64,000 nucleotides of DNA, from positions 1 through 64,000 of the forward strand of contig SHMW01000007.1 in assembly GCA_008080735.1 (NCBI GenBank). Reading direction: 5' to 3'. The notes beneath the pieces were generated by a model. That model was not told the DNA's origin. It searched no databases and saw nothing but the letters and a program-made list of their open reading frames with translations. Positions 3,539-31,903 of the stretch are shown one piece after another. A program made the position numbers and the translations under genes. The stretch comes from Promethearchaeota archaeon (GTDB lineage: Archaea; Asgardarchaeota; Lokiarchaeia; Sigyniarchaeales; SOKP01). Within the stretch, counting starts at the first letter, position 1; each line of letters opens with the position of its first letter.

Positions 3539-5740
3539 ATGAAAGTAAGCAAATTTAAGTTATTTGGATTTAGTTTGATATTTTTTGGATTGATTCTACC
3601 TCTCTTCTTGAGCATTGTGGGATATATTCCGACCTACGATAATTTTAAGCAAGATGGAGAGAATAGATATCTAATTGAGGAGATTTACTCACCTAAGCTA
3701 AGCTATATTTCGGATTCCTATCCTAGTAATGAAACTATTGCTATCATAGTCCAAATGGGTTTATCTGGAGTTTCCACTGCAGTTACTAATTATGAAAATG
3801 ATTTAAAAGCTACTGGATATAATGTTTTGAAATATTCAAGCAATATAACCGATGCTAAATCTTTAAAAAACTTGCTTAAGGGATATTATGAAAATAACGG
3901 TTTGGTCGGGGCAGTATTCATTGGGAAATTACCTTATGTTTGGTTTAAAGACCCCGCTATAGGGTATAACGAAATATTCGAATGCGATATGTTTTTTATG
4001 GACCTTGACGGGAATTGGATTGACACTAATAGCGATGGAATATATGATGTTCATAATGCATCATCTGGGGCTGACGTGCATCCAGAAATATATATCGGCA
4101 GGATTGATGCCTCTAATAGAACCTTAGGAACGGGACAGAGTTCTGACATCTCAAGTTTAATTAATCGATTTCATAACTATCGCAAAGGTAATTTGAATAT
4201 TGAACATAAAGCATTAATGTATATAGATGACGACTGGCAAGGAGATGCAAATGGAACGTGGAATGATTGGCCTGCTTGGTTAAATAATGCTTATCCCAAT
4301 CATGATGATATTCATACTCCAACAACTTGGACTAATAAGTCTGATTGGCTAAATCGGTTGGGAAATAGTAGTTATGAATTTGCTCATCTAGCTGTTCATA
4401 CTTCCTCATCATCAAGTGGGGGAAAACACTATTTTGGTTCTGGATATGCGGGATCAGAAGGTAATATCACTGCTGCAGAAATTCATAATAAAGGTGGAGG
4501 ATTTGCTTTCTATAATTTATATTGTTGTTGGGGAGCTGATTATAATACTTCTGATTGCATGGGAGCTACCTATTTATTTTCTGGAACATATACTCAAGCC
4601 GTGATTGGATCGACTAAATCGGGAGGGATGATTAATGGAGCTTATTTCTATGATAGTCTAGCGGAAAATAATACAATCGGCCGAGCATTAATCGATTGGC
4701 TTGAATCAAATCCAAATTTGGATGATATTAATAACCAATCGTGGGTTTATGGGATGTGCATATTAGGAGACCCTTTCGCAACTATTCATTATGATTGCTC
4801 TGTCCCAAAACCAACTATAACTTCAAGTACACATACAGAAGATCAATGGAGCACAGTGAAGTCTTTAGTGAGATTTAATTGGACGTGCTATGCTGATTTA
4901 AACGGATTGGACGGATCTTATTATATATTAGATCAGAATCCGAACACGATACCCACAGCTACTACGGGTATATACACAAAAATAAATGGTACCTCATTCT
5001 CCAATCTTGATGACGGTATCTGGTATCTCCATGTTGTTGCGAAAGATGATCTCGGAAATATTGGGAAAAGAGGTGATCATTTCACTCTAAAGATTGATAC
5101 TACTGGTCCAGATATTAGTCTATTAACTCCAACCATCAATCATTACTCACCGACCATTTCAGTATTTATCTCTTGGGACGCTGTTGATGAATATAATTCT
5201 TTAAATCCTTTTTGTATATTTAATCGAACGGGACAATCCATCTATACGGGAACAACAAAAAACTTTACCATAAATGGAATGATAGCGGGACTCAACTTAT
5301 TTAATATCACTTGCACCGATTCACTAATGAATCCTGGAATATTAGAAATTTCAATTTTTGTTGATTTGATTGATCCAAGTGTGAATGTGACCAGTCCATT
5401 AGTAAATCAAACCGTAGAAAATACATTTACAATTACTTGGGAAGCACTCGATGGCGAGAGTGGGATAGATCATACCGAAATATACAGTGATAGTAAACTC
5501 ATAAAAACTGTTGATGGAAATATTAACAGTACCACCATCTCAGGATTAACAGCAGGAACTCATAGTATAAATGTTACTACTTATGACAAATCAGGTCGAT
5601 CAGCATCTCAGACGATCTCTATCAATGTTAAGCCTGGTGAGAATAAAATCCCCGGTTTTCCACTTGGAATATTTATAATTGGCTCAATATTTATTTCAAT
5701 AGCATATGTAATTTCCAAGAAACAAGAACTATACAAATAA
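3539..5740 (+). CDS. Secreted/surface C25 (gingipain-like) cysteine peptidase with Ig-like domains and C-terminal PGF-like anchor
   Basis: N-terminal signal/TM; FIGKLP, DMFFMDLDG, PEIYIGRI, ILGDP motifs; His (AVHT) and Cys (YCC) candidates; beta-rich repeats; C-terminal IPGFP + TM + KK. Confidence 0.75.
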   Translation: MKVSKFKLFGFSLIFFGLILPLFLSIVGYIPTYDNFKQDGENRYLIEEIYSPKLSYISDSYPSNETIAIIVQMGLSGVSTAVTNYENDLKATGYNVLKYSSNITDAKSLKNLLKGYYENNGLVGAVFIGKLPYVWFKDPAIGYNEIFECDMFFMDLDGNWIDTNSDGIYDVHNASSGADVHPEIYIGRIDASNRTLGTGQSSDISSLINRFHNYRKGNLNIEHKALMYIDDDWQGDANGTWNDWPAWLNNAYPNHDDIHTPTTWTNKSDWLNRLGNSSYEFAHLAVHTSSSSSGGKHYFGSGYAGSEGNITAAEIHNKGGGFAFYNLYCCWGADYNTSDCMGATYLFSGTYTQAVIGSTKSGGMINGAYFYDSLAENNTIGRALIDWLESNPNLDDINNQSWVYGMCILGDPFATIHYDCSVPKPTITSSTHTEDQWSTVKSLVRFNWTCYADLNGLDGSYYILDQNPNTIPTATTGIYTKINGTSFSNLDDGIWYLHVVAKDDLGNIGKRGDHFTLKIDTTGPDISLLTPTINHYSPTISVFISWDAVDEYNSLNPFCIFNRTGQSIYTGTTKNFTINGMIAGLNLFNITCTDSLMNPGILEISIFVDLIDPSVNVTSPLVNQTVENTFTITWEALDGESGIDHTEIYSDSKLIKTVDGNINSTTISGLTAGTHSINVTTYDKSGRSASQTISINVKPGENKIPGFPLGIFIIGSIFISIAYVISKKQELYK

Positions 5741-5753
5741 GAATAATCTCTTC

Positions 5754-5780
5754 TTTTTTTTTCTCATTTATATTTTTTTA
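5754..5780 (+). terminator. Oligo-T tract, probable archaeal terminator
   Basis: T-runs immediately after the stop of the 733-aa gene. Confidence 0.4.
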
Positions 5781-5873
5781 TTTAAATAATTATAATTTCT
5801 AACCAGTTTAGCCAAAAATTGGCACCCTCTCAAATTTAAATTTGCGTGAATGGTTTAATAAAAGTAGATTACA

Positions 5874-8539: not shown

Positions 8540-9127
8540 TTATTGATTTTCAGCCCAACCAAGACAAGCCGCAACTACAGCCCCTAGAGCTGAGAGCATT
8601 AAGCCCAATCCAAAATATTCACTATAACAAGTTGCAAAAGTTAATGATGATGGGCATGTTGCTCCGATTATGATTGAATAGATAAATAAGAAAAATATGA
8701 GAGTTGCTCCAAAGGCCAATAAATAAGTGTAACCTTCACTTATGCTAATTTCTTTTACTACTTTTACGATTCCGGGAATAAAAAATGTAAATGTGAAAAA
8801 TAAGATGGTCTGGAGTGAAAAAATAGTGATTGTTATAGGTTCAGATCCAAATAAATTGAGTATCGATAAGGTAGTAATAATAATTGTAATAGTAAATAAG
8901 AGACCTCCTAAGGTTAATAATAAATACCCTTGATTTTTAGTATCCAAGGTTTGATAGACTAGGAGCAATCCCGGTAAGGTACATACTACGAGTATTCCAA
9001 AGCCAATAATAAAAACTCCCGCCCTCGAAGTTAAAAACATTAGAAATAATCCAAAAATGCCCCCAATAAAGATTATAAGCAACCCTACTTCTTTTTTTGT
9101 TTCTTTCTCCATTGTTTTTTCCACCAA
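8540..9127 (-). CDS. Hypothetical multi-pass membrane protein
   Basis: 195 aa, about six hydrophobic helices. Confidence 0.7.
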   Translation of the reverse strand: MVEKTMEKETKKEVGLLIIFIGGIFGLFLMFLTSRAGVFIIGFGILVVCTLPGLLLVYQTLDTKNQGYLLLTLGGLLFTITIIITTLSILNLFGSEPITITIFSLQTILFFTFTFFIPGIVKVVKEISISEGYTYLLAFGATLIFFLFIYSIIIGATCPSSLTFATCYSEYFGLGLMLSALGAVVAACLGWAENQ

Positions 9128-23109: not shown

Positions 23110-24054
23110 TTAAAACTTTTCATTGAATCCATCAAATTGGTCTATTAATAAATCGGAATCTTTTCTATATAATACATTTAGCGCATAAGCCTGATTCGAC
23201 AAATAGGTTTCTCCTAATAGTAGAGATACTCGTATATGATGGTCATTTTCACTAAATATTGGTACAATTGAATCCCATTTAGAAAAAAAGGAATAATTTT
23301 TGGTCAACTCTAAAGTTTTATCAAGAAGAACCATTTTTTTGGAATTTTTATCGATTTGAGTATCAATTAATTTCTGTTTTTGATTTTTAAAATAGGATTT
23401 TTTGAATAATTGGTATCGTATACAAGACTCTTCGTTAATGTATTTGTAAATATAATAATCAAATGGATATAATCCGGGAATATATTTGGAATTCTTGGAT
23501 AACTTGAATTTGAATATAATTTTGGATACAAATTTATTGAGAAAATATATTGAATAGAACAACACAAAGCTGGGAAATAGATAAAAAAGTAATATGAAAG
23601 GATTTAAAAACCTAAAGAAAATTGAGACAATAAGAATACCTATTGAAATGAACATTAAGAAAGGATTTACCGCTCTATCAATGAAAAAGCGATATTTCTT
23701 CTTTGAAAAAGGATACACGATTGGAATCTTTGAGGCAGTGAGAAAATCAAAGAAAATATGGAGAAAATAAAATGCAGTCCCGATAATCCAAGTAGCAATT
23801 AAATCTGCTCCCATTAGAAAAAAAAGAAATACACTAGGGAAGAATGAAATTAGAATAGCACCCACAATAGAATGAGAAACGCCTTTATGCGATAACAATT
23901 TAGAATTCCTAAATTTGGGGATTATTTCAAGAAAAACATCCAAATCAGCTAAAATTGCCATAAATACCGCGTAGTAAAAAAAAACTATATCCATTCCTTT
24001 TAACAGATAACTAGCGAATAAAATAGCAATAATAAAGTGCGAAAAAAAGTCCAT
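23110..24054 (-). CDS. Membrane-bound metal-dependent hydrolase (YdjM-like)
   Basis: MDFFSH, ADLD, HKGVSHS, HIFFD motifs. Confidence 0.8.
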   Translation of the reverse strand: MDFFSHFIIAILFASYLLKGMDIVFFYYAVFMAILADLDVFLEIIPKFRNSKLLSHKGVSHSIVGAILISFFPSVFLFFLMGADLIATWIIGTAFYFLHIFFDFLTASKIPIVYPFSKKKYRFFIDRAVNPFLMFISIGILIVSIFFRFLNPFILLFYLFPSFVLFYSIYFLNKFVSKIIFKFKLSKNSKYIPGLYPFDYYIYKYINEESCIRYQLFKKSYFKNQKQKLIDTQIDKNSKKMVLLDKTLELTKNYSFFSKWDSIVPIFSENDHHIRVSLLLGETYLSNQAYALNVLYRKDSDLLIDQFDGFNEKF

Positions 24055-24222
24055 ATCTCATTTAGGAAAATTGATATAAGAATTTTAAGTTAGTTCTAAT
24101 ATCTTATAATAATTCAGCACAGAAAATTTAGAATTAATAAAAAAATTTCTCTTATGTATTTCAAAACAAATATTCAAGCAGATTTCAAAACATTTTACGC
24201 TTTTTGACTTTGAAATCCATCT

Positions 24223-24654
24223 TCAATATGAGATATCCCGGTCCTCTAAAAACGATTTAATTTTTTCTTCAAGTTCATCCCGTGCAGATCTAAATCGTTC
24301 AATTCTTTCTTCCTCAGAACCTTCAAATGCAGCGGGATCTTCAATATTCCAAAATAACCTCGTGCTCACTCCTGGCAGGGTGGGACATAATTTTTCAGCC
24401 TTTTGACATACGGTAATAACAATCCCGAAATGCTTCTCTCCTAAATATTGATCCAAATCTTTAGAGTAATGATCACTCATATCATATCCCTTTTCTTCCA
24501 TAACTTTTTTAGTAAGAGGATGAATTTCCTTTGGCTCAAACCCCGCGCTGAATACATTGAAATAATCTCCAGCAAGTTTGTCCAAAATCGCTTCTGCCAT
24601 CTGACTTCTTGCTTGATTATGAGTACATAAAAAAATTACACTCGGCTTTTTCAT
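24223..24654 (-). CDS. arsC: Arsenate reductase, thioredoxin-coupled LMWP family
   Basis: CTHNQARSQMAE, TVCQKAEKLCP, WNIEDP. Confidence 0.88.
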   Translation of the reverse strand: MKKPSVIFLCTHNQARSQMAEAILDKLAGDYFNVFSAGFEPKEIHPLTKKVMEEKGYDMSDHYSKDLDQYLGEKHFGIVITVCQKAEKLCPTLPGVSTRLFWNIEDPAAFEGSEEERIERFRSARDELEEKIKSFLEDRDISY

Positions 24655-24749
24655 AAATCAATCATCATTGAATTTAATTTAAAAATTACTTCTATATAAT
24701 ATATATTTTTAGGCGATTTACTCAATACAAAAATTTTTGAGGAGGCGAT

Positions 24750-24796
24750 CCTCATGTCGATCTCTTACTAAGATTTATTAAGAGATTTCATTCATT
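24750..24796 (-). promoter_or_regulatory. Candidate SECIS-like / kink-turn RNA hairpin
   Basis: Minus strand ATG-AAT-GA-A-ATCTCTTA-AT-AAA-TCTTAG-TAAGAGAT-C-GA-CAT: tandem GA core, 3-nt bulge, 8-bp stem, AAA 11 nt after ATGA. Confidence 0.45.
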
Positions 24797-24905
24797 TTTA
24801 TTATTAATCAAAATAATGTCCAAAGTGTTCGTGGTTTTTTCCATATCTTTTATCTAAGCTATTTTTAAATTCAGCAATGTCTAACCTTTCCCGAATCTTT
24901 TCTCA

Positions 24906-25256
24906 TCAACAACCAGGGTCAAGTTGAATATTAATGTCACTCTCTGGTATTAAGGAATAATCGGGATTTTCATGTAAAGGCATAAATTCTCTATTAGGGC
25001 CGTAGGCCATTATTCCCACATCATCATATATTTTATTGGTTTTCGGATTCCAGATTAATTGTAAATAGTTATAAATATATCCTTCGAAAATGGGGAAGAT
25101 ACAATCTTCTGGATTATTTTTTATGTATTTGTCGACTTTAGCAATGGCTTCAGCTAGATTCGCATCGTCTTTAATTTGGACATTAAAAGATTTTCCTTGA
25201 GACAACCCACTATAGGGCATGCTTATACTAATTTTGATGGTTTTAAATTCAATCAC
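24906..25256 (-). CDS. Beta-grasp/ubiquitin-like protein ending PGC, possibly extended by selenocysteine
   Basis: MoaD/SAMP-like pattern (IKISI, FNVQI, NLAEAIAKV, LIPESDINIQL); ends GGT TGT TGA TGA. Confidence 0.6.
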   Translation of the reverse strand: MIEFKTIKISISMPYSGLSQGKSFNVQIKDDANLAEAIAKVDKYIKNNPEDCIFPIFEGYIYNYLQLIWNPKTNKIYDDVGIMAYGPNREFMPLHENPDYSLIPESDINIQLDPGC

Positions 25257-25319
25257 CTTAAAGTTTCTTGGAATTCAAATAATTCTGTTTCTTTAACAAG
25301 TAAATAAAACTAATTAAAA

Positions 25320-25745
25320 CTATTTGCTTGACCATAATTTGACCTTACTTTCTATTTGGTCACGTATTTTTCTAAAAAAAGCCAATTTTTCCTCCTCGGA
25401 GCCTTCAAACGCTGCGGGGTCTTCGAAAGGCCAATGTAATTCTTCTTGTACACCCAGAATAGTGGGGCAGGATTCTTTAGCACTCGAACAAACAGTAATA
25501 ACAATATCAATATCAATTTTCTTCATTAATTCTCTTATATGCTTTGAGTTATGACCACTCCAATCGAATCCTGCCTCTTCGAGCACTTTTATAGTATATG
25601 GATGTATGGGATGCGGTTCTGTTCCTGCACTATAGGCATTATATCTATCATTTCCATATTTATTGATAAATGCTTCCGTCATTTGACTCCTGCATGAGTT
25701 CCCCGTACATACGACTACTATATTTTTTTTACCCATTTGAATCAT
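25320..25745 (-). CDS. arsC: Arsenate reductase, thioredoxin-coupled LMWP family
   Basis: CTGNSCRSQM, TVCSSAKESCP, HWPFEDP. Confidence 0.9.
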   Translation of the reverse strand: MIQMGKKNIVVVCTGNSCRSQMTEAFINKYGNDRYNAYSAGTEPHPIHPYTIKVLEEAGFDWSGHNSKHIRELMKKIDIDIVITVCSSAKESCPTILGVQEELHWPFEDPAAFEGSEEEKLAFFRKIRDQIESKVKLWSSK

Positions 25746-25776
25746 CTCTCGTTGAATGTAATTTTGGGGGTATGTT

Positions 25777-26055
25777 TTAATTTATGAATCCTCTTTCCTT
25801 TAAAATCTTGGGTAATTGTTTTTTTAAAGCATAAACTGAGGATATTTTTTTTTTTTCATCAATTATAATACATTTTTGAAATAATTTCATCTTCGCAGCT
25901 TTTTTGGAATGTAATGATTTTGTATCGTGTTCAATATATTTTATATATGGTGTAAGGACTTCAAAAACGCGATTCATAAAATTTTCCCATTCACATGCAC
26001 AAACTTGAAGCGGAACATAAATATCTACTTTAACTTTTTCATTCTGGTTTGACAT
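25777..26055 (-). CDS. Small CxC protein, possibly an ArsD/thioredoxin-like metallochaperone
   Basis: VDIYVPLQVCAC resembles the ArsD N-terminal motif; lies inside the ars operon. Confidence 0.5.
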   Translation of the reverse strand: MSNQNEKVKVDIYVPLQVCACEWENFMNRVFEVLTPYIKYIEHDTKSLHSKKAAKMKLFQKCIIIDEKKKISSVYALKKQLPKILKERGFIN

Positions 26056-26082
26056 AAAAATCCTTCTTATGAATAATTAAAA

Positions 26083-26418
26083 TTAACAACAACATTCATT
26101 ATTATTTTTCTTCGAACGTTTTCTAGCATCCCATAAGCACCCACACCCTTTTTGTTCTTGCATTATTATCGCGTGGGTTGGACAATTTCTCTCACATGCA
26201 CTACATTCAGTACATTTTTCAGGCTCACCGATATTATATGTCCCATCGTTTTCCTCTTTTAGAAGTCCAAATGGGCATATCTCCTCACACAAACCGCAAC
26301 CGATACATTTTGAGGGATCTATAGCTATCTTTAAGTTTAAATTCTTCAAAAAACCTTCAATAACACTGCTAGAGTCACAACAGCTATTGTTTTTTTCTAA
26401 TTTTGTCATTTTTCTCAA
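26083..26418 (-). CDS. hgcB: HgcB-like 2[4Fe-4S] ferredoxin
   Basis: CIGCGLCEEICP and CTECSACERNCP, then GCGC, C-terminal CCC; directly follows the hgcA-like gene. Confidence 0.75.
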   Translation of the reverse strand: MRKMTKLEKNNSCCDSSSVIEGFLKNLNLKIAIDPSKCIGCGLCEEICPFGLLKEENDGTYNIGEPEKCTECSACERNCPTHAIIMQEQKGCGCLWDARKRSKKNNNECCC

Positions 26419-26435
26419 AACATTATAGATTCTTA

Positions 26436-28100
26436 TTATAATATTATTATACTCAAAAGGGTAAGAAATAACCCAACACAGAGTAAAATGTAATTTAATT
26501 TTTTAAATAATGGATATTCATTTCTAATTTCTCTTGGGTTTGTTGACATAGTATATCCGCTAAAAGACATTGTAGTGAAGAATCCAATCCATAGAAAAAA
26601 GATTAAATTTAGAATAACGTAGTATAACGAAAAACTAAGAAACCACGTAACTATTCCAAGGGAAATTGTATTAATAATACCAAAAAACATACTTTTTAGA
26701 ACAAAATTACGCGTAAAGTTAGAGAGAGGGTAAAGGAGAATTAATAAAAGATTTGGAAAGAGTATCCAAATTAAAAGATCGGCAGCCATCCAAGTTTTAT
26801 TGATGATATTCGCAAGATCTAGGGCAAAAAGGATAAAAAATAGAATAATTAATGGAAGAAGAAATATTTTTCTCAAAAGAAATGTCGTATGTGTTATTCC
26901 CGCAGGAATCCGATGTCGGAAAGTAAATTTGGCTCTCTTCATTTGCTTAGACTTCTTCTTTGGTTTTTTAATAAGGTATTCCTTCAAGTACCGTGACCAT
27001 ACTGGACCATATTCAATCTTAAATGGAAATATTTCTGAATGCTCTGGTAAATTGGGTTTTGAAAGCCCTCCGGCAGAAAGCTGGGGTAAAATGATAGTAT
27101 TATTGTCAGTAATATGTTTCACGCCTGTCGCTTCAACCGCTTCAAGTAATTGTTCATTACCAAAATCATCTCCTCTCGCAGCACACCAGACATTAATACC
27201 ATTAGAGTCAATACATAATATCCATGCATCAATACCTTCTAAATCTCTCATAACTTTAATAAAAGTATATGCATAATTAGCAGTTGCAATAATCGGAGAA
27301 TAATTATTTGGATTACCCGATTTATATAATCCAGGTTCAATCGGAACATTATCAACCTGACCTGTCAATAGGCATCTCCAAATTTTTAGTTGTGATGAAA
27401 TACCTTTTATTTTTGGTTTTTCTGGTTTATAATAACCCGGTTCATTCTTTTCTTCTTCAAATGATTTTTCTAATTCTATAGCTTGAATTGATCCGTGAGT
27501 CCATTTTTTTATGTCGGCTATTTTGAAACCAATCGGTTCTAAATAATCTTCAAAATACTCTAAAGGATTAGTTCTCTCAAGTTTTAATCTTCTTAATTTT
27601 TTATTATATAACCACCTTTTCACCCAGAATGGAACCTTCCAAACTCCAGAGGGAATAAACTCTGCTGCAATTATTAATCGACCATCAGATTTTAATGCTT
27701 TCCACGCATTACGAAGAAAGATTTGTTGTTCCAACGGTCTTAGTTCTGATAACATAAAGGTACTAATGATTAAATCCTGAGAATCCTCTGGAACTTTCAA
27801 ATCTTTAATTGTACCAATTTGATATAGCAAATCTATATTATCTTTTTTTGGCATATTTTTCAAAGCATAGCTAATCATCTGATAATTTTCATCAAGAGCT
27901 CTGACTTTAGCGCCTTTTAACGCAATCTTTAAAGCCAAAATCCCAGTGCCGCACCCAACTTCTAAAACAGATTGATCATATTCAATCTTTTCTAAGATCC
28001 AGTTCTGAATTTTAATATTTACTCCTTTTGTGAGATTAGTAAACTTTGAATCGTAATTTGCAGGTTCCTGCTCCAATTTTTGCATGTAAGTAACAGCCAT
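26436..28100 (-). CDS. hgcA: SAM-dependent methyltransferase fused to an HgcA-like corrinoid protein
   Basis: N-terminal VLEVGCGTG, DLIISTFMLSEL; then IEPGLYKSGNP..SPIIATANY, GINVWCAARG, IILPQLSAGG, YGPVWS; about five C-terminal TM helices. Confidence 0.8.
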   Translation of the reverse strand: MAVTYMQKLEQEPANYDSKFTNLTKGVNIKIQNWILEKIEYDQSVLEVGCGTGILALKIALKGAKVRALDENYQMISYALKNMPKKDNIDLLYQIGTIKDLKVPEDSQDLIISTFMLSELRPLEQQIFLRNAWKALKSDGRLIIAAEFIPSGVWKVPFWVKRWLYNKKLRRLKLERTNPLEYFEDYLEPIGFKIADIKKWTHGSIQAIELEKSFEEEKNEPGYYKPEKPKIKGISSQLKIWRCLLTGQVDNVPIEPGLYKSGNPNNYSPIIATANYAYTFIKVMRDLEGIDAWILCIDSNGINVWCAARGDDFGNEQLLEAVEATGVKHITDNNTIILPQLSAGGLSKPNLPEHSEIFPFKIEYGPVWSRYLKEYLIKKPKKKSKQMKRAKFTFRHRIPAGITHTTFLLRKIFLLPLIILFFILFALDLANIINKTWMAADLLIWILFPNLLLILLYPLSNFTRNFVLKSMFFGIINTISLGIVTWFLSFSLYYVILNLIFFLWIGFFTTMSFSGYTMSTNPREIRNEYPLFKKLNYILLCVGLFLTLLSIIIL

Positions 28101-28124
28101 TTAAACCTCTCTGATGTATCTAAA

Positions 28125-29189
28125 TTATTTTTTATTTATCCTCCAAAAGCCTTTTCTTCCGAGGAATTTCCCTATATATACAATGGAGAGCATTATTGGA
28201 ATCTCCCAAAAAAGCCCCATAGTTGTCCCAAGGGCAGCTATGCTTCCAACCCCGTATAATCCCACTGCAGTTGCGATTGCAATTTCAAAATGCGACGATG
28301 AACCTATTATTACGCTGATTATCGCCTCCTTATAAGCGAAGCCCAGAATTTTCGTAACCATGATGTTGTATAAGACAACGATAAAAAATCCCACCAACAA
28401 GGGGATAGAAACGATGACCATTAATTGGGGATTGTTCAATAATACTTCTCCATTTAAGGAAAACAGAATAATTAATGTTGTCAATAAGGCTACGATAGAG
28501 ATCTTTCCTACAGCAGGTTTATAGGTATTTTGAAACCAACTTTCACCTTTCGATTTTATTAAAAATTTTCGTGAAAGAATGCCTATTAAAAGTGGAAGTC
28601 CAATGAAAACTATTCCAGAAATTAGAAGTTGAGTCCAATCAATAGGGATATTCTGTATTCCCGTCAATAAAGACACCATAGGTACATATCCAATTATTAT
28701 TGTAATCGTGTTTATGCTAGTTGTCAATACATTCTGTTCTTGATTTCCTTTTGCCATCCAACCCCAAACTAGGACCATCGCGGTACATGGAGAACTGGAT
28801 AAAAGAATTATTGCAACAATGAGCTGCTGATCCACTAAAAAAATGTTAGCCATTGCCAATCCGACAAATGGGGCAATTAACCAATTTGAAACTAACGTGG
28901 CGATGACGGGTTTTGGATCTCTTCCTATCTGTTTTAATTCTGAGTATTGAAAATTTAACATCGCAGGATACATCATCAAAAATAAGCAAATGCCTATAGG
29001 AATTGAGATCCCACCTATTTTGATTGATTCGATGAATTCTCCTATTCCTGAAACCACTTGAGAAAGTAAAATCCCAATGAATATACATAGAGCAACCCAC
29101 GCAGGAAGAAACTTTTCAAAATAGCCAAGTTTTTTTTCTCTTTCTTTTAGCTCTTCCTCAATAGTTACTGAATTTCTTTTTTCAGACAT
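28125..29189 (-). CDS. acr3: ACR3-family arsenite efflux transporter
   Basis: LFLMMYP, SNWLIAP, PCTAMVLVW, SSHFEIAIA, WEIPIML. Confidence 0.93.
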   Translation of the reverse strand: MSEKRNSVTIEEELKEREKKLGYFEKFLPAWVALCIFIGILLSQVVSGIGEFIESIKIGGISIPIGICLFLMMYPAMLNFQYSELKQIGRDPKPVIATLVSNWLIAPFVGLAMANIFLVDQQLIVAIILLSSSPCTAMVLVWGWMAKGNQEQNVLTTSINTITIIIGYVPMVSLLTGIQNIPIDWTQLLISGIVFIGLPLLIGILSRKFLIKSKGESWFQNTYKPAVGKISIVALLTTLIILFSLNGEVLLNNPQLMVIVSIPLLVGFFIVVLYNIMVTKILGFAYKEAIISVIIGSSSHFEIAIATAVGLYGVGSIAALGTTMGLFWEIPIMLSIVYIGKFLGRKGFWRINKK

Positions 29190-29408
29190 AATTTTTTCAG
29201 ATTTTCGATATATATTTTCTGTTTATGAGTTTCATATTAGGTGAATTTATGCTCAGATTTAAATCTATCGATTTGAAATACTTGAGAAACTATAATGTTG
29301 AATATTTTAATCTATGGTACTTATTCAAGAATAGTAAGAGCTAAGGTTAAAAAATACTCCATTATCAAACAGCAATTGAGGGAAAACGATCTATTGATAA
29401 TAGGATTC

Positions 29409-30194
29409 TTATTCTAAATGAGAATGTGGAGATCCGAGAGGAACCAATGTATAATCGCCTCCAGATTCAAGTAAACCTTTTTTAAGGAGTTCTTCACAGA
29501 AGGGATTACCATAAAGATTTATATACAAATTTTTATTATGAATATAAGGGAGGATATCATCAGGGTTTGCGAGGAGATTACTTGAGAGTTCGACGGTGAG
29601 AAGATTTGGATGGCTAGTAAGATCGGGAAGCCGAGTTATTTGATTATTGAAGAGTAAAAGCTCATATAAATCAGGGAGAGAATAAATTTCACGAATTTTA
29701 TCTATCTTATTACAATTTATAGAGAGAGATCTTAGCTTTTTCAGTTTTTCAAGTCCTTCCATTTTAATAATATTATTCCAACCTAATGAAAGTCCTTCTA
29801 AATTTATATTTTTTTCTAACCCTTGAATAGTTCTAACTTGATTTAATTGGAGGGATAATCTTTTCAGTTTTGTTAGATTTTCGAGTCCTTTAATTTTAGA
29901 GATCTTATTTCTTCCTAAATTAAGAACTACAAGATTTTTGAGATGATTGATTCCTTTAATCTCACTGATTTGATTGTTACATAAACTTAGATATCTTAAG
30001 TTAGAAAGATATTTAATTCCTTGGATTTTAGATAACTTGCATCCAGAAATATCAATTCTTTTTAATTCAGTTAGACTTTCAAGCCCTTTTATTTCTGTAA
30101 TATCTTTAAGTGTCGGAGAATTATTTATTATTAGTGAATTATTGCTAACATAGAATTTTTGACCATCAAACTCTACACACTGATTTTCTGTCAT
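29409..30194 (-). CDS. Leucine-rich repeat protein
   Basis: 22-aa LxxLxLxxNxIxxIxGL repeats. Confidence 0.92.
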   Translation of the reverse strand: MTENQCVEFDGQKFYVSNNSLIINNSPTLKDITEIKGLESLTELKRIDISGCKLSKIQGIKYLSNLRYLSLCNNQISEIKGINHLKNLVVLNLGRNKISKIKGLENLTKLKRLSLQLNQVRTIQGLEKNINLEGLSLGWNNIIKMEGLEKLKKLRSLSINCNKIDKIREIYSLPDLYELLLFNNQITRLPDLTSHPNLLTVELSSNLLANPDDILPYIHNKNLYINLYGNPFCEELLKKGLLESGGDYTLVPLGSPHSHLE

Positions 30195-30299
30195 TTTATA
30201 TTAAAAGAAAGAAAAATGTGTATTTAAAAATACTCTCTGTGGAATTTTTTAATTTATGATTGCTCGATTATATTGAATAATCAGAAAAAAAATCTCTGT

Positions 30300-30743
30300 T
30301 TAATTCTTAATTATAGAGACCCCACCATAAATTGCTGCATAGGTGCCTAAAAAGGACATAATTTGCATTAATGTCGCTATCGCCATTAAACTCATAAATT
30401 TAATAATCGTTTGCTGAGAAGGTTCAACTTTTTTTATGTCTTTACATTCATATCCTCCTACTTTAGAAATCACCCAGTTCATCGAGGCAGCACAGCAATC
30501 AATCGCATTATTTAAATTATATTCCAAAGTGTTGAAAAATTTATATTGGGGAGAGTTAGGATTTGTCCAATGTTCTCTCCATCCATCTTTTGTTGTAGCA
30601 GCCGAAAAGAAAGTGTCACGAGCAACCTTAAATGTTAGAGTCTCTGGATTCCAAAATTTAGTATTTAATAGATTAGGTAATATTTTTTGAGAAGGAATAT
30701 TAGCGAAAAAGTATAAAAATCGAAAATTTGTGATATTCTTCTT
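30300..30743 (-). pseudogene. Probable 5'-disrupted gene
   Basis: The frame of the 75-aa ORF stays open back to 30743 (about 147 codons) with no ATG/GTG/TTG before 30527; ATGATG at 30808-30813 is in another frame and stops after a few codons. Confidence 0.4.
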
Positions 30744-30908
30744 TTATCAAAATTTTGTGTGATTTGAAATCTTTAAAATATTCTCCTAAAATTTATCGAT
30801 TCGGATTCATCATGGTCAATCTGAAATCTATAATTACTTTATAACACTATATTGATATAGAGAAAGGAATATTGGTGATTTAATATAGATAGAGAAAGAA
30901 AAAAAGAA

Positions 30909-31298
30909 GTGATGAATACTTTAGAGAGTTGCGTGGATATGGAGGGTGTTAATATGGTCCAATATTTTAATGAATTGAGGGAATTAGGAAAATCTATTCA
31001 AAAAAATAAAAAGTTTAGAGAAGTCTTGGACTTCTGCAACACTCTGGGCAATGAAGAACGTTTAAAAATCGTTGAGAGTCTTAAAAAGCAAGACCATTGT
31101 GTATGCGAATTAGAGGTTATTTTAGACAAATCTCAACCAACCATTTCCCATCACTTACGGGAACTGGAAAAGATTGGACTCATACGAGGCTGGAAAAAAG
31201 GAAAATTTACTCATTATGATATTGTTGATGAGAAAATGGAGCATTATATAAGTTTATTGACATCACGTTTTAAAGAGAAGGGAAAATCCTCTAATTAA
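30909..31298 (+). CDS. arsR: ArsR/SmtB-family transcriptional repressor
   Basis: LGNEERLKI, HCVCEL (As-binding-type box), SQPTISHHLREL. Confidence 0.9.
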   Translation: MMNTLESCVDMEGVNMVQYFNELRELGKSIQKNKKFREVLDFCNTLGNEERLKIVESLKKQDHCVCELEVILDKSQPTISHHLRELEKIGLIRGWKKGKFTHYDIVDEKMEHYISLLTSRFKEKGKSSN

Positions 31299-31363
31299 AA
31301 TTTGAAGTAGCATTCTTAGTTATTATTATAAATTGGAATAGAATAATATAAGTATACATAATA

Positions 31364-31903
31364 ATGTCTGAAATTAATATTAGTAAAGAGGATATCTCGT
31401 TCTTCGGAAATGAGGTACCTCAAGAGAAAGATATTATATTTAGTGGTTATGCACTAATTGCAAATAAAGTCGGCAGGATATATAGATGGCATTCACCCAT
31501 TTTTATTACAACGGAAGAGATTATATTTTATCAACCTCTCCATTCTCGATTTAAAGAGGGGATAAATAAAGTAGAGCTCTATAAAACTCACGTATTTAAA
31601 AATTATAAGCATCTCTATGTTTCTTCTTGGGATATCCGACCGAAATATAATGAACGATCACCTGAAACAAAAGAGGAGTTTAAAGCACGATGGAAAAGGT
31701 TTCAAAAAACGGTCCTCCCTCATGTAATTAGGAGTATGAAGGAACATTTGAAATTCATCGAAGTAAATAAGGATGATCCTGAATTTTATAATGATAAAGA
31801 TAATATGGAAATGCCTTGGTTTGGGACTGAAAAAAAATTAGAAACACATATTCAAAAAACATTGCCTAAACTCGAAAAAAAGTTAGCAAAAATTTCTAAA
31901 TAA
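31364..31903 (+). CDS. Hypothetical protein
   Basis: 179-aa ORF, no recognised motif. Confidence 0.65.
   Translation: MSEINISKEDISFFGNEVPQEKDIIFSGYALIANKVGRIYRWHSPIFITTEEIIFYQPLHSRFKEGINKVELYKTHVFKNYKHLYVSSWDIRPKYNERSPETKEEFKARWKRFQKTVLPHVIRSMKEHLKFIEVNKDDPEFYNDKDNMEMPWFGTEKKLETHIQKTLPKLEKKLAKISK

Follow-up and report, generated by a model that had tools for sequence, protein, structure and literature searches.

A conserved methyltransferase::HgcA-like fusion in an arsenic operon of Loki-type Asgard archaea

The native role of HgcA and HgcB, the proteins that methylate mercury, has been open since 2013, and a published hypothesis links the pair to arsenic. Here we describe an arsenic operon with HgcA- and HgcB-like genes in a stretch of 64,000 nt (the window) at the start of contig SHMW01000007.1 of GenBank assembly GCA_008080735.1, a Promethearchaeota metagenome-assembled genome (MAG) from marine sediment (4.1 Mb, 140 contigs, 93% complete, 7% estimated contamination). 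Open reading frame (ORF) listing together with Pfam and NCBIfam scans placed seven genes in a row on the minus strand (Table 1): acr3, a methyltransferase (MT)::HgcA-like fusion, an HgcB-like gene, a gene for a CxC protein, arsC, a beta-grasp gene and a second arsC. The intergenic gaps from acr3 down to the beta-grasp gene are 24, 17, 27, 31 and 63 nt, and both the row and the spacing bear out an earlier note made from the sequence of this DNA. We tentatively favor the interpretation that this is an ArsR-controlled arsenic operon with a branch in which a methyl group would pass from S-adenosylmethionine (SAM) via a corrinoid to As(III), accompanied by two proteins with chalcogen ligands.

Several elements of such a system have been described. 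SAM is the methyl donor of HgcAB, by way of a Cys-ligated methyl-Co(III) intermediate (PMC11588087), which makes a fused SAM-methyltransferase mechanistically sensible and a natural elaboration of the pathway. As the earlier note stated, linkage to ars genes has been reported for some bacterial hgcAB, with Gionfriddo et al. finding hgcAB beside arsC, arsB and arsM in some genomes (bioRxiv 10.1101/2022.10.17.512643). Asgard sequences have been placed in a 'fused-hgcAB' clade (Lin et al. 2023), and NCBIfam already has models for CpaM and HgcAB-like proteins. Since the link between hgcAB and arsR/ars genes is published and these models exist, calling the whole an undescribed system, as the note suggested for its top candidate, was an overstatement. 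Our literature search found no description of an MT::HgcA-like fusion in an ars operon, of the CxC protein or of the selenocysteine (Sec)-Sec protein that we read from the beta-grasp gene.

The fusion protein and its ferredoxin partner

The N-terminal domain of the fusion matches the CpaM model at residues 4-211, with a score under the cut-off of 180, and is also matched by Methyltransf_25 and Methyltransf_11. Its GCGTG SAM loop and D70, along with the GINVWCAARG segment of the next domain, are invariant in 17 Asgard homologues, for which mean column identity is 71%. The second domain is a CdhD-like corrinoid domain by its match to PF03599 (50.1 bits, above the cut-off of 24.8). The HgcA model NF040863 aligns over residues 248-550 at 168.9 bits, below its equivalog cut-off of 275, and the HgcAB-like fusion model scores 168.4 bits. 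Hydropathy segments at residues 402-436, 436-462, 466-514 and 531-554 supply the transmembrane domain expected of HgcA. The adjacent ferredoxin-like protein has two CxxCxxCxxxC motifs, GCGC and a C-terminal CC, all kept in 18 Asgard homologues. All parts of the methylation module are present and conserved: the SAM-methyltransferase, Cys-capped corrinoid and membrane domains and the 2x[4Fe-4S] ferredoxin. In its make-up, the predicted B12- and SAM-dependent module is thus self-contained, as the note proposed.

The fusion is widespread, with 534 database proteins at E <= 0.001. The best 120 have the same length and domain pair, and their source MAGs carry Loki, Hermod, Hod and Heimdall labels. 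The host belongs to the Loki-type Asgard archaea, as its close homologues all bear the names Promethearchaeota or Lokiarchaeota. Many Asgard genomes (for example G008:C11, G083:C53, G087:C39, G149:C57, G134:C4 and G005:C18) have another, more distant MT::HgcA-like paralogue, 590-650 aa long and at 27-32% identity, and in one genome (G003) a CpaM-like gene that is not fused immediately precedes an HgcAB-like gene. With these arrangements, every fusion permutation of the three building blocks exists in the phylum. Separately, a second CdhD-like (CFeSP gamma-type) hit lies in genome G000 (contig C32:36659-37195, locus L002) within a 487-aa open frame containing two in-frame TAG codons, which could represent two genes, a broken gene or pyrrolysine-type recoding.

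Given the full-length homology to HgcA and HgcB, membrane domain included, the module might methylate Hg(II) or soft metals generally and owe its place among ars genes to shared ArsR-type, thiol-reactive regulation. The module retains the essential Cys of the cap helix as well as HgcB's C-terminal Cys pair, the Sec-Sec protein described below would bind Hg(II) very tightly, and selenoproteins recur in organomercurial contexts. However, the high-stringency rule of Capo et al. (2022) defines true hgcA by N[V/I]WC[A/S][A/G/S]GK and true hgcB by C(M/I)ECGA. The cap helix of the fusion, NVWCAARG, keeps the Cys but fails the first pattern, the HgcB-like protein has CTECSA in place of the second, and both proteins score well under the NCBIfam equivalog cut-offs. 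Among 80 species-representative loci, canonical unfused HgcA proteins all read NVWCAAGK except for two with NVWCAAGE, the Asgard MT-fused forms all read NVWC(A/G)ARG, and the bacterial MT-fused forms (Chloroflexota and others) mostly read NVWCAAGGG. In a quick maximum-likelihood tree (IQ-TREE), 40 canonical HgcA proteins formed one clade with 100% support and all fused forms outside it. The 17 Loki-type fusions formed a clade of their own, also with 100% support, whose sister is the Thorarchaeota fusions. Tested carriers of related fused HgcAB-like proteins do not methylate Hg, and the operon has no mer genes but three to four arsenic genes. We consider mercury or general soft-metal methylation an unlikely function.

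Table 1. Features of the operon and its surroundings (positions in the window)
Feature	Coordinates	Strand	Evidence
arsR, ArsR/SmtB-family regulator with CVC box (HCVCELE)	30909..31298	+	Pfam HTH_5 57 bits; NF033788 74.6 bits
Leucine-rich-repeat (LRR) protein, 261 aa, internalin-like repeats	29409..30194	-	Pfam LRR_4 93.8 bits
acr3, arsenite efflux permease	28125..29189	-	TIGR00832 275.6 bits over 1-326/327 (cut-off 282.8)
MT::HgcA-like fusion, 554 aa	26436..28100	-	CpaM-like and HgcA-like domains
Fusion, N-terminal class-I SAM methyltransferase (CpaM-like), aa 1-215	27456..28100	-	NF043040 140.6 bits over 3-215/216
Fusion, HgcA-like corrinoid-binding domain, aa ~240-400 (cap helix NVWCAARG at 27171-27194)	26901..27383	-	PF03599, NF040863
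Fusion, C-terminal membrane domain, aa ~401-554, about five hydrophobic helices (stop codon included)	26436..26900	-	NF040863 alignment to 322/325
HgcB-like 2x[4Fe-4S] ferredoxin with GCGCLW motif and C-terminal ECCC	26083..26418	-	NF040864 55.9 bits (cut-off 99); Fer4 families
CxC protein, 92 aa, thioredoxin fold, VP..CxC at start of helix 1	25777..26055	-	No family hit; AF2
arsC, thioredoxin-coupled LMW-PTPase-type arsenate reductase	25320..25745	-	TIGR02691 138.3 bits; CX5R P-loop, Cys86, Cys93
Predicted beta-grasp selenoprotein, ~149 aa, ...PGC-U-U-EK...	24804..25256	-	UGA-UGA 24903-24908; TAA stop 24804-24806
SECIS-like element, eukaryote/Loki type	24735..24800	-	Comparative folding; AUGA 24788-24791, GA 24757-24758
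Second arsC, thioredoxin type	24223..24654	-	TIGR02691 115.1 bits; CX5R and distal Cys pair
YdjM-family membrane protein after the operon	23110..24054	-	PF04307 55.9 bits

Conservation of the ars association and the place of ArsM

The neighbourhood of the fusion was surveyed by tblastn of the window proteins against the 80 loci and clustering of neighbouring ORFs, with 16 further regions added from the window's taxonomic family. One layout (type A) is shared by the window and about 16 other species-level genomes, and consists of a divergent arsR upstream, then acr3, the fusion, hgcB, the CxC gene, the Sec-Sec gene, sometimes arsC, and ydjM (L012, L020, L021, L025, L043, part of L022, G121, G141, G083, G109, G077, G113, G071, G065, G104 and G099, some entries being one genome under two labels). 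Because the same gene order recurs in this many genomes, the arrangement is far beyond chance. The draft state and estimated contamination of the source MAG, as well as variation in operon make-up between close species, could be taken to indicate a mis-assembly or an incidental juxtaposition lacking functional coupling. However, the same order, with its short gaps, is found on independent contigs from many MAGs and studies, and this conservation effectively refutes such an explanation, which we regard as scarcely credible.

In a second layout (type B), a MarR gene precedes the fusion and hgcB, the flanking genes are unrelated and no ars genes are present (L013, L014, L017-L019, L023, L024, G049, G150, G129). 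Types A and B are sister subclades (SH-aLRT 95 and 92), and a few Loki-type loci are intermediate, with ArsR only. In Thorarchaeota loci, an ArsR gene lies directly upstream on the same strand. Canonical hgcAB was also found inside arsR/arsC/acr3 clusters in seven loci (L049, L052/58/67, L054, L068, L085), with at least four independent origins on the tree. The ars association is real, inherited within one clade and recurrent in the superfamily, but not universal. The neighbourhood survey, which the earlier note had named beforehand as a check, thus bears out conserved linkage for type A but not for the sister subclade.

This distribution bears on a different possibility, that what the fusion and ferredoxin methylate is not a metal but, for example, a thiol, a small metabolite or a protein, with the ars genes as co-regulated neighbours and the ArsR and MarR regulators sensing S-adenosylhomocysteine (SAH), redox state or thiol stress. 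Roughly half of the Loki-type loci carry MarR but lack ars genes, bacterial MT-fused forms likewise have no ars neighbours, several paralogous MT-HgcA-like fusions occur per Asgard genome, and ArsR2 of Pseudodesulfovibrio mercurii ND132 also responds to SAH (bioRxiv 10.1101/2022.10.17.512643). On the other hand, the vicinal-Cys motifs of the HgcB-like protein are kept in both subclades, the CxC and Sec-Sec proteins, which are typical soft-metal ligand sets, are confined to the ars-type operon, ars association arose independently in canonical hgcAB, and Rosetta-stone and adjacency links tie the module to ArsM, as described next. A non-metal substrate seems improbable to us, to about the same degree as mercury.

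The earlier note saw no stand-alone arsM and proposed the module as an alternative to ArsM. No ArsM reached the cut-off anywhere in the 4.1-Mb source genome (93% complete), where the best score was 60 bits compared to a cut-off of 263 (NF008823). The fusion's own MT domain scores 35.8 bits against this model and has one invariant Cys in the 17 homologues. Within the window's family, ArsM was found in 2/13 type-A genomes (G065, G109) and in 7/13 of all other genomes, a weak trend that fits substitution but comes mostly from one genus and is therefore not phylogenetically independent. Of 151 Asgard genomes, 75 had an ArsM above the cut-off and 50 had the fusion or paralogues of it, and the two co-occurred freely. 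In one genome (G129), arsM adjoins the fusion operon, and in a metagenomic protein (P0145), ArsM (NF008823, 260 bits) is fused to a CxC domain and encoded directly after an HgcB-like gene. Given this co-occurrence, adjacency and fusion, we rejected the strict anticorrelation with arsM that the note had suggested checking, and of its ArsM-alternative proposal only the rarity of ArsM in type A stands. The same links tie the module to arsenic methylation chemistry and suggest that its role and that of ArsM are complementary rather than redundant.

An ArsM in the same operon would also be sensible if the activities differed because the module ran in reverse, moving methyl from methyl-As(III) to Co(I) and letting As(III) leave via Acr3. 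Such a module would be an anaerobic counterpart of ArsI, which is an O2-dependent lyase. Acr3 does export As(III), and neither ArsP nor ArsM was found in the source genome. However, an intact, conserved SAM-methyltransferase fused to the corrinoid protein argues for methyl flow from SAM to cobalt, the operon has no gene for a methyl acceptor, and there is no precedent for such a reaction. Demethylation is accordingly the reading that we find highly unlikely.

The remaining genes of the locus fit a classical arsenic operon. The acr3 product, the only Acr3 hit in the genome, has the Cys motif PCTAMV (PCxAMV). Both ArsC proteins have the CX5R P-loop and two distal Cys of the pI258 type, at 138 and 115 bits compared to an equivalog cut-off of 174. 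The nearby ArsR with a CVC box, noted earlier, is present, upstream of the operon and divergent from it, and the CVC is kept in the ArsRs of all type-A and Thorarchaeota loci. The LRR gene stands between arsR and acr3; no homologue was found at this position in any related locus, indicating an insertion specific to the source genome, and its product is probably not part of the arsenic/methylation system. Homologues of ydjM occupy the same place in most type-A loci (L021, L025, L043, G121, G141, G083, G109, G065, G104, G135).

Several variations were observed in related loci. A DUF166 (PF02593) gene lies between arsR and acr3 in L025 and L043 and is also found at L011:12320-13051. An NADPH-dependent FMN reductase gene (PF03358, a family that includes ArsH) lies directly upstream of the fusion and beside ArsR at L016:5746-6357 (+), in a locus otherwise of type B, and another is near the fusion in L019. 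In locus L097 (G135:C84), a 28-aa C-terminal remnant of acr3 lies at ~8692-8775 beside arsR, with a second ArsR-like gene downstream at ~5620-5799.

A CxC protein and a candidate Sec-Sec protein

Two small genes accompany the module, and in the surveyed loci both are restricted to the ars-type operon. For the first, the CxC gene, no family was detected in Pfam (E up to 10) or NCBIfam (0.01), and the family counts 48 cluster representatives among 1.8 billion. C19 is invariant, and V14, P15 and C21 are at least 90% conserved. The AF2 model (pLDDT 94) has thioredoxin matches with TM 0.56-0.67, and the CxC sits where thioredoxin has CxxC; no PDB match at E <= 0.001 was returned by Foldseek. An ArsD-like metallochaperone was considered and rejected, as no match was seen in sequence and the top fold matches did not include ArsD. 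In type-A loci, the CxC gene goes with the fusion, not with arsC. Complex prediction of the CxC protein with the fusion and HgcB-like protein weakly supports an interaction, with a score of 0.52 compared to 0.01 for the best of three controls, where the mark was reached by 58/80 solved complexes and 2/110 mismatches and scores <=0.60 were obtained for 7/80 solved complexes and both passing mismatches. The runs agreed in at least 61% of contacts, with partner pLDDT of at least 78. By analogy with the CVC site of ArsR, the CxC protein could be an As(III) carrier, or it could be a dedicated reductant. Distant members of the family at L113:961-1221 and L114:796-1056 lie directly after a Thioredoxin_3 (PF13192) gene and beside glycine-cleavage H protein, a hint that the wider family may serve in redox pairs generally.

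The second gene, for the beta-grasp protein, is present as the earlier note described but extends beyond its 116-aa ORF. This ORF (24906-25256) ends in ...PGC, after which come TGA-TGA, 32 further codons and TAA. The UGA-UGA is kept in 13/13 homologous loci, in the context GC-UU-E or AD-UU-A, and in these loci the 32-residue tail is conserved at the protein level (E.V..RL.I..FK....K.GK....F.HYF). All 16/16 database homologues stop at the UGA and are called hypothetical, and no homologue with Cys in place of Sec was found.

About 12 nt after the stop codon lies a likely selenocysteine insertion sequence (SECIS), in which an 8-bp helix (24779-24786 with 24760-24767) bears an A-rich apical loop and is accompanied by another small hairpin (24738-24754). 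Across five aligned loci, the ATGA and GA are invariant, and there are two compensatory pairs and two G-U changes. The SECIS call comes from comparative folding and has no Rfam support: an Rfam scan of 24200-31400 with E up to 10 detected no SECIS and no other credible RNA family. In form, the element agrees with the eukaryote-like SECIS that Mariotti et al. (2016) and Huang et al. (2024) reported for Lokiarchaeota. The genome encodes SelD above the cut-off, with its own in-frame TGA, making it a selenoprotein itself and an indication of Sec machinery. Aragorn found no tRNA-Sec in the whole genome, where it found only 12 tRNAs, which we judge to be a limitation of the tool with archaeal tRNAs. 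On the in-frame UGA codons with conserved downstream coding, the lineage-type SECIS and SelD, we read the gene as encoding a selenoprotein with adjacent Sec residues (the UU protein).

The AF2 model of the UU protein (pLDDT 77) has a beta-grasp followed by two helices, with the UU pair in the linker. Foldseek against the PDB gave no match at E <= 0.001, only generic beta-grasp similarity (SAMP1, UBX, RA domains, transcobalamin beta-domain), and a cobalamin-binder likeness based on the transcobalamin match was dropped as too weak. Pfam (E up to 10) and NCBIfam (0.01) have no family for the extended protein. The UU protein is also absent from the five and seven Asgard selenoprotein families of Mariotti et al. 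(2016) and Huang et al. (2024), surveys that relied on known families or Cys homologues, and the Sec-Sec family is probably new. One homologue (L021:12379-12852) has a third in-frame TGA in the tail, where others have Gly or Ala; this could be either another Sec or a sequencing variant. In L101, L104 and L107, the UU genes end at a TGA stop lying a few codons ahead of the SECIS, in agreement with the minimal UGA-to-SECIS distance rule proposed for Lokiarchaeota.

Proposed function and comparison with known systems

In the interpretation we favor, arsenate reduction by the two ArsC proteins and arsenite efflux by Acr3 would be joined to a self-contained methyl-transfer machine. The CpaM-like domain would transfer the methyl of SAM to Co(I) of a corrinoid held under the Cys-capped HgcA-like helix, and the HgcB-like ferredoxin would re-reduce the cobalt, with its vicinal cysteines presenting the soft metal(loid). 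The membrane domain would hold the reaction at the membrane beside Acr3. The CxC and Sec-Sec proteins may serve as thiol/selenol ligand carriers or reductants, passing substrate in or product out. The likeliest substrate would be As(III) or methyl-As(III), with no As(V) intermediate.

For arsenic speak the presence of the module in the only Acr3 locus of a genome in which no ArsM was found, the type-A order within one supported subclade, the repeated occurrence of canonical hgcAB in ars clusters, the CxC-ArsM fusion and the arsM adjacency in G129. In addition, hgcAB of P. mercurii is ArsR-regulated and arsenic-induced (bioRxiv 10.1101/2022.10.17.512643).

A number of observations weigh against it. 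The sister subclade carries the same type of fusion behind MarR, and neither it nor the bacterial MT-fused forms have ars neighbours. In the closest species (G135), the fusion, hgcB, CxC and arsC genes remain, but acr3 is reduced to the 28-aa remnant and the UU gene is missing. Many Asgard genomes have both ArsM and the module, at times even within one operon, and the module is thus no simple substitute. No ArsP-type (ArsP_1) methylarsenite exporter was found in the source genome, and methyl-As(III) is more toxic than As(III). Three distant CxC-family members are all outside an ars context, limiting the arsenic link of this protein to the operon's own subclade and the ArsM fusion. Finally, neither mono- nor dimethylarsenicals were produced by P. 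mercurii ND132, whose HgcAB is canonical, and knocking out hgcAB cost this strain little of its As resistance (bioRxiv 10.1101/2022.10.17.512643).

Overall, arsenic methylation by the fusion module is a plausible hypothesis. The more specific proposal, that this distinct fused clade of the HgcA family would be a corrinoid arsenic methyltransferase of anaerobic Asgard archaea served by a CxC and a Sec-Sec carrier, we regard as doubtful, though less so than the alternatives above. The locus is nevertheless the cleanest natural test case so far for an arsenic role of the HgcAB family, since the clade has lost the mercury-type cap helix, gained a SAM-loading domain and become fixed in the only detected arsenic operon of a genome in which no ArsM was found. 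If the interpretation is right, the HgcAB superfamily would have arsenic rather than mercury among its native substrate classes, and methylarsenicals would also arise by a second, ArsM-independent biological route. The attribution of methylarsenic in anoxic sediments and paddy soils, now made via arsM counts, would then change, and the travelling of hgcAB with ars genes would be explained. The Sec-Sec family and a eukaryote-like SECIS in a polycistronic archaeal operon bear on the history of Sec decoding from Asgard archaea to eukaryotes.

Among described systems, HgcA and HgcB of P. mercurii ND132 share with the module the CdhD-like corrinoid domain, the Cys cap helix, the C-terminal multi-helix membrane domain, the adjacent 2x[4Fe-4S] ferredoxin with a C-terminal Cys pair and frequent ArsR/ars neighbours. 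SAM is the ultimate methyl donor for HgcAB and, by analogy, would also be the donor for the fusion. In contrast to HgcA and HgcB, the Loki-type proteins have an extra N-terminal SAM-methyltransferase, NVWCAARG rather than NVWCAAGK and CTECSA rather than C(M/I)ECGA, and form a separate clade. The fused HgcAB-like proteins of the Pyrococcus furiosus type (NF043039), together with CpaM (NF043040), share the three building blocks of SAM-methyltransferase, HgcA-like protein and ferredoxin; here, however, the methyltransferase and not the ferredoxin is fused to HgcA, HgcB is separate, and the genes sit in an ars operon alongside those for two additional small proteins.

ArsM resembles the module in its SAM-dependent class-I fold, its ars-operon context and, in one relative, its fusion to the CxC partner, but the MT domain of the fusion does not have the three to four As-binding cysteines, and methyl would pass via cobalt. 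With classical arsR-acr3-arsC operons, the locus shares the CVC-box ArsR, the Acr3 permease and thioredoxin-type ArsC; unlike them, it has four added conserved genes (fusion, hgcB-like, CxC and Sec-Sec) between acr3 and arsC. The SAO system, the Sec forms of HgcA/HgcB (Haft and Gwadz) and the UU/CU metal-binding selenoproteins similarly have Sec beside Cys or Sec and links to metal-carbon chemistry or arsenic methylation, whereas the predicted UU protein is a beta-grasp, archaeal protein with a eukaryote-like SECIS in a polycistronic operon and matches no NCBIfam or Pfam family.

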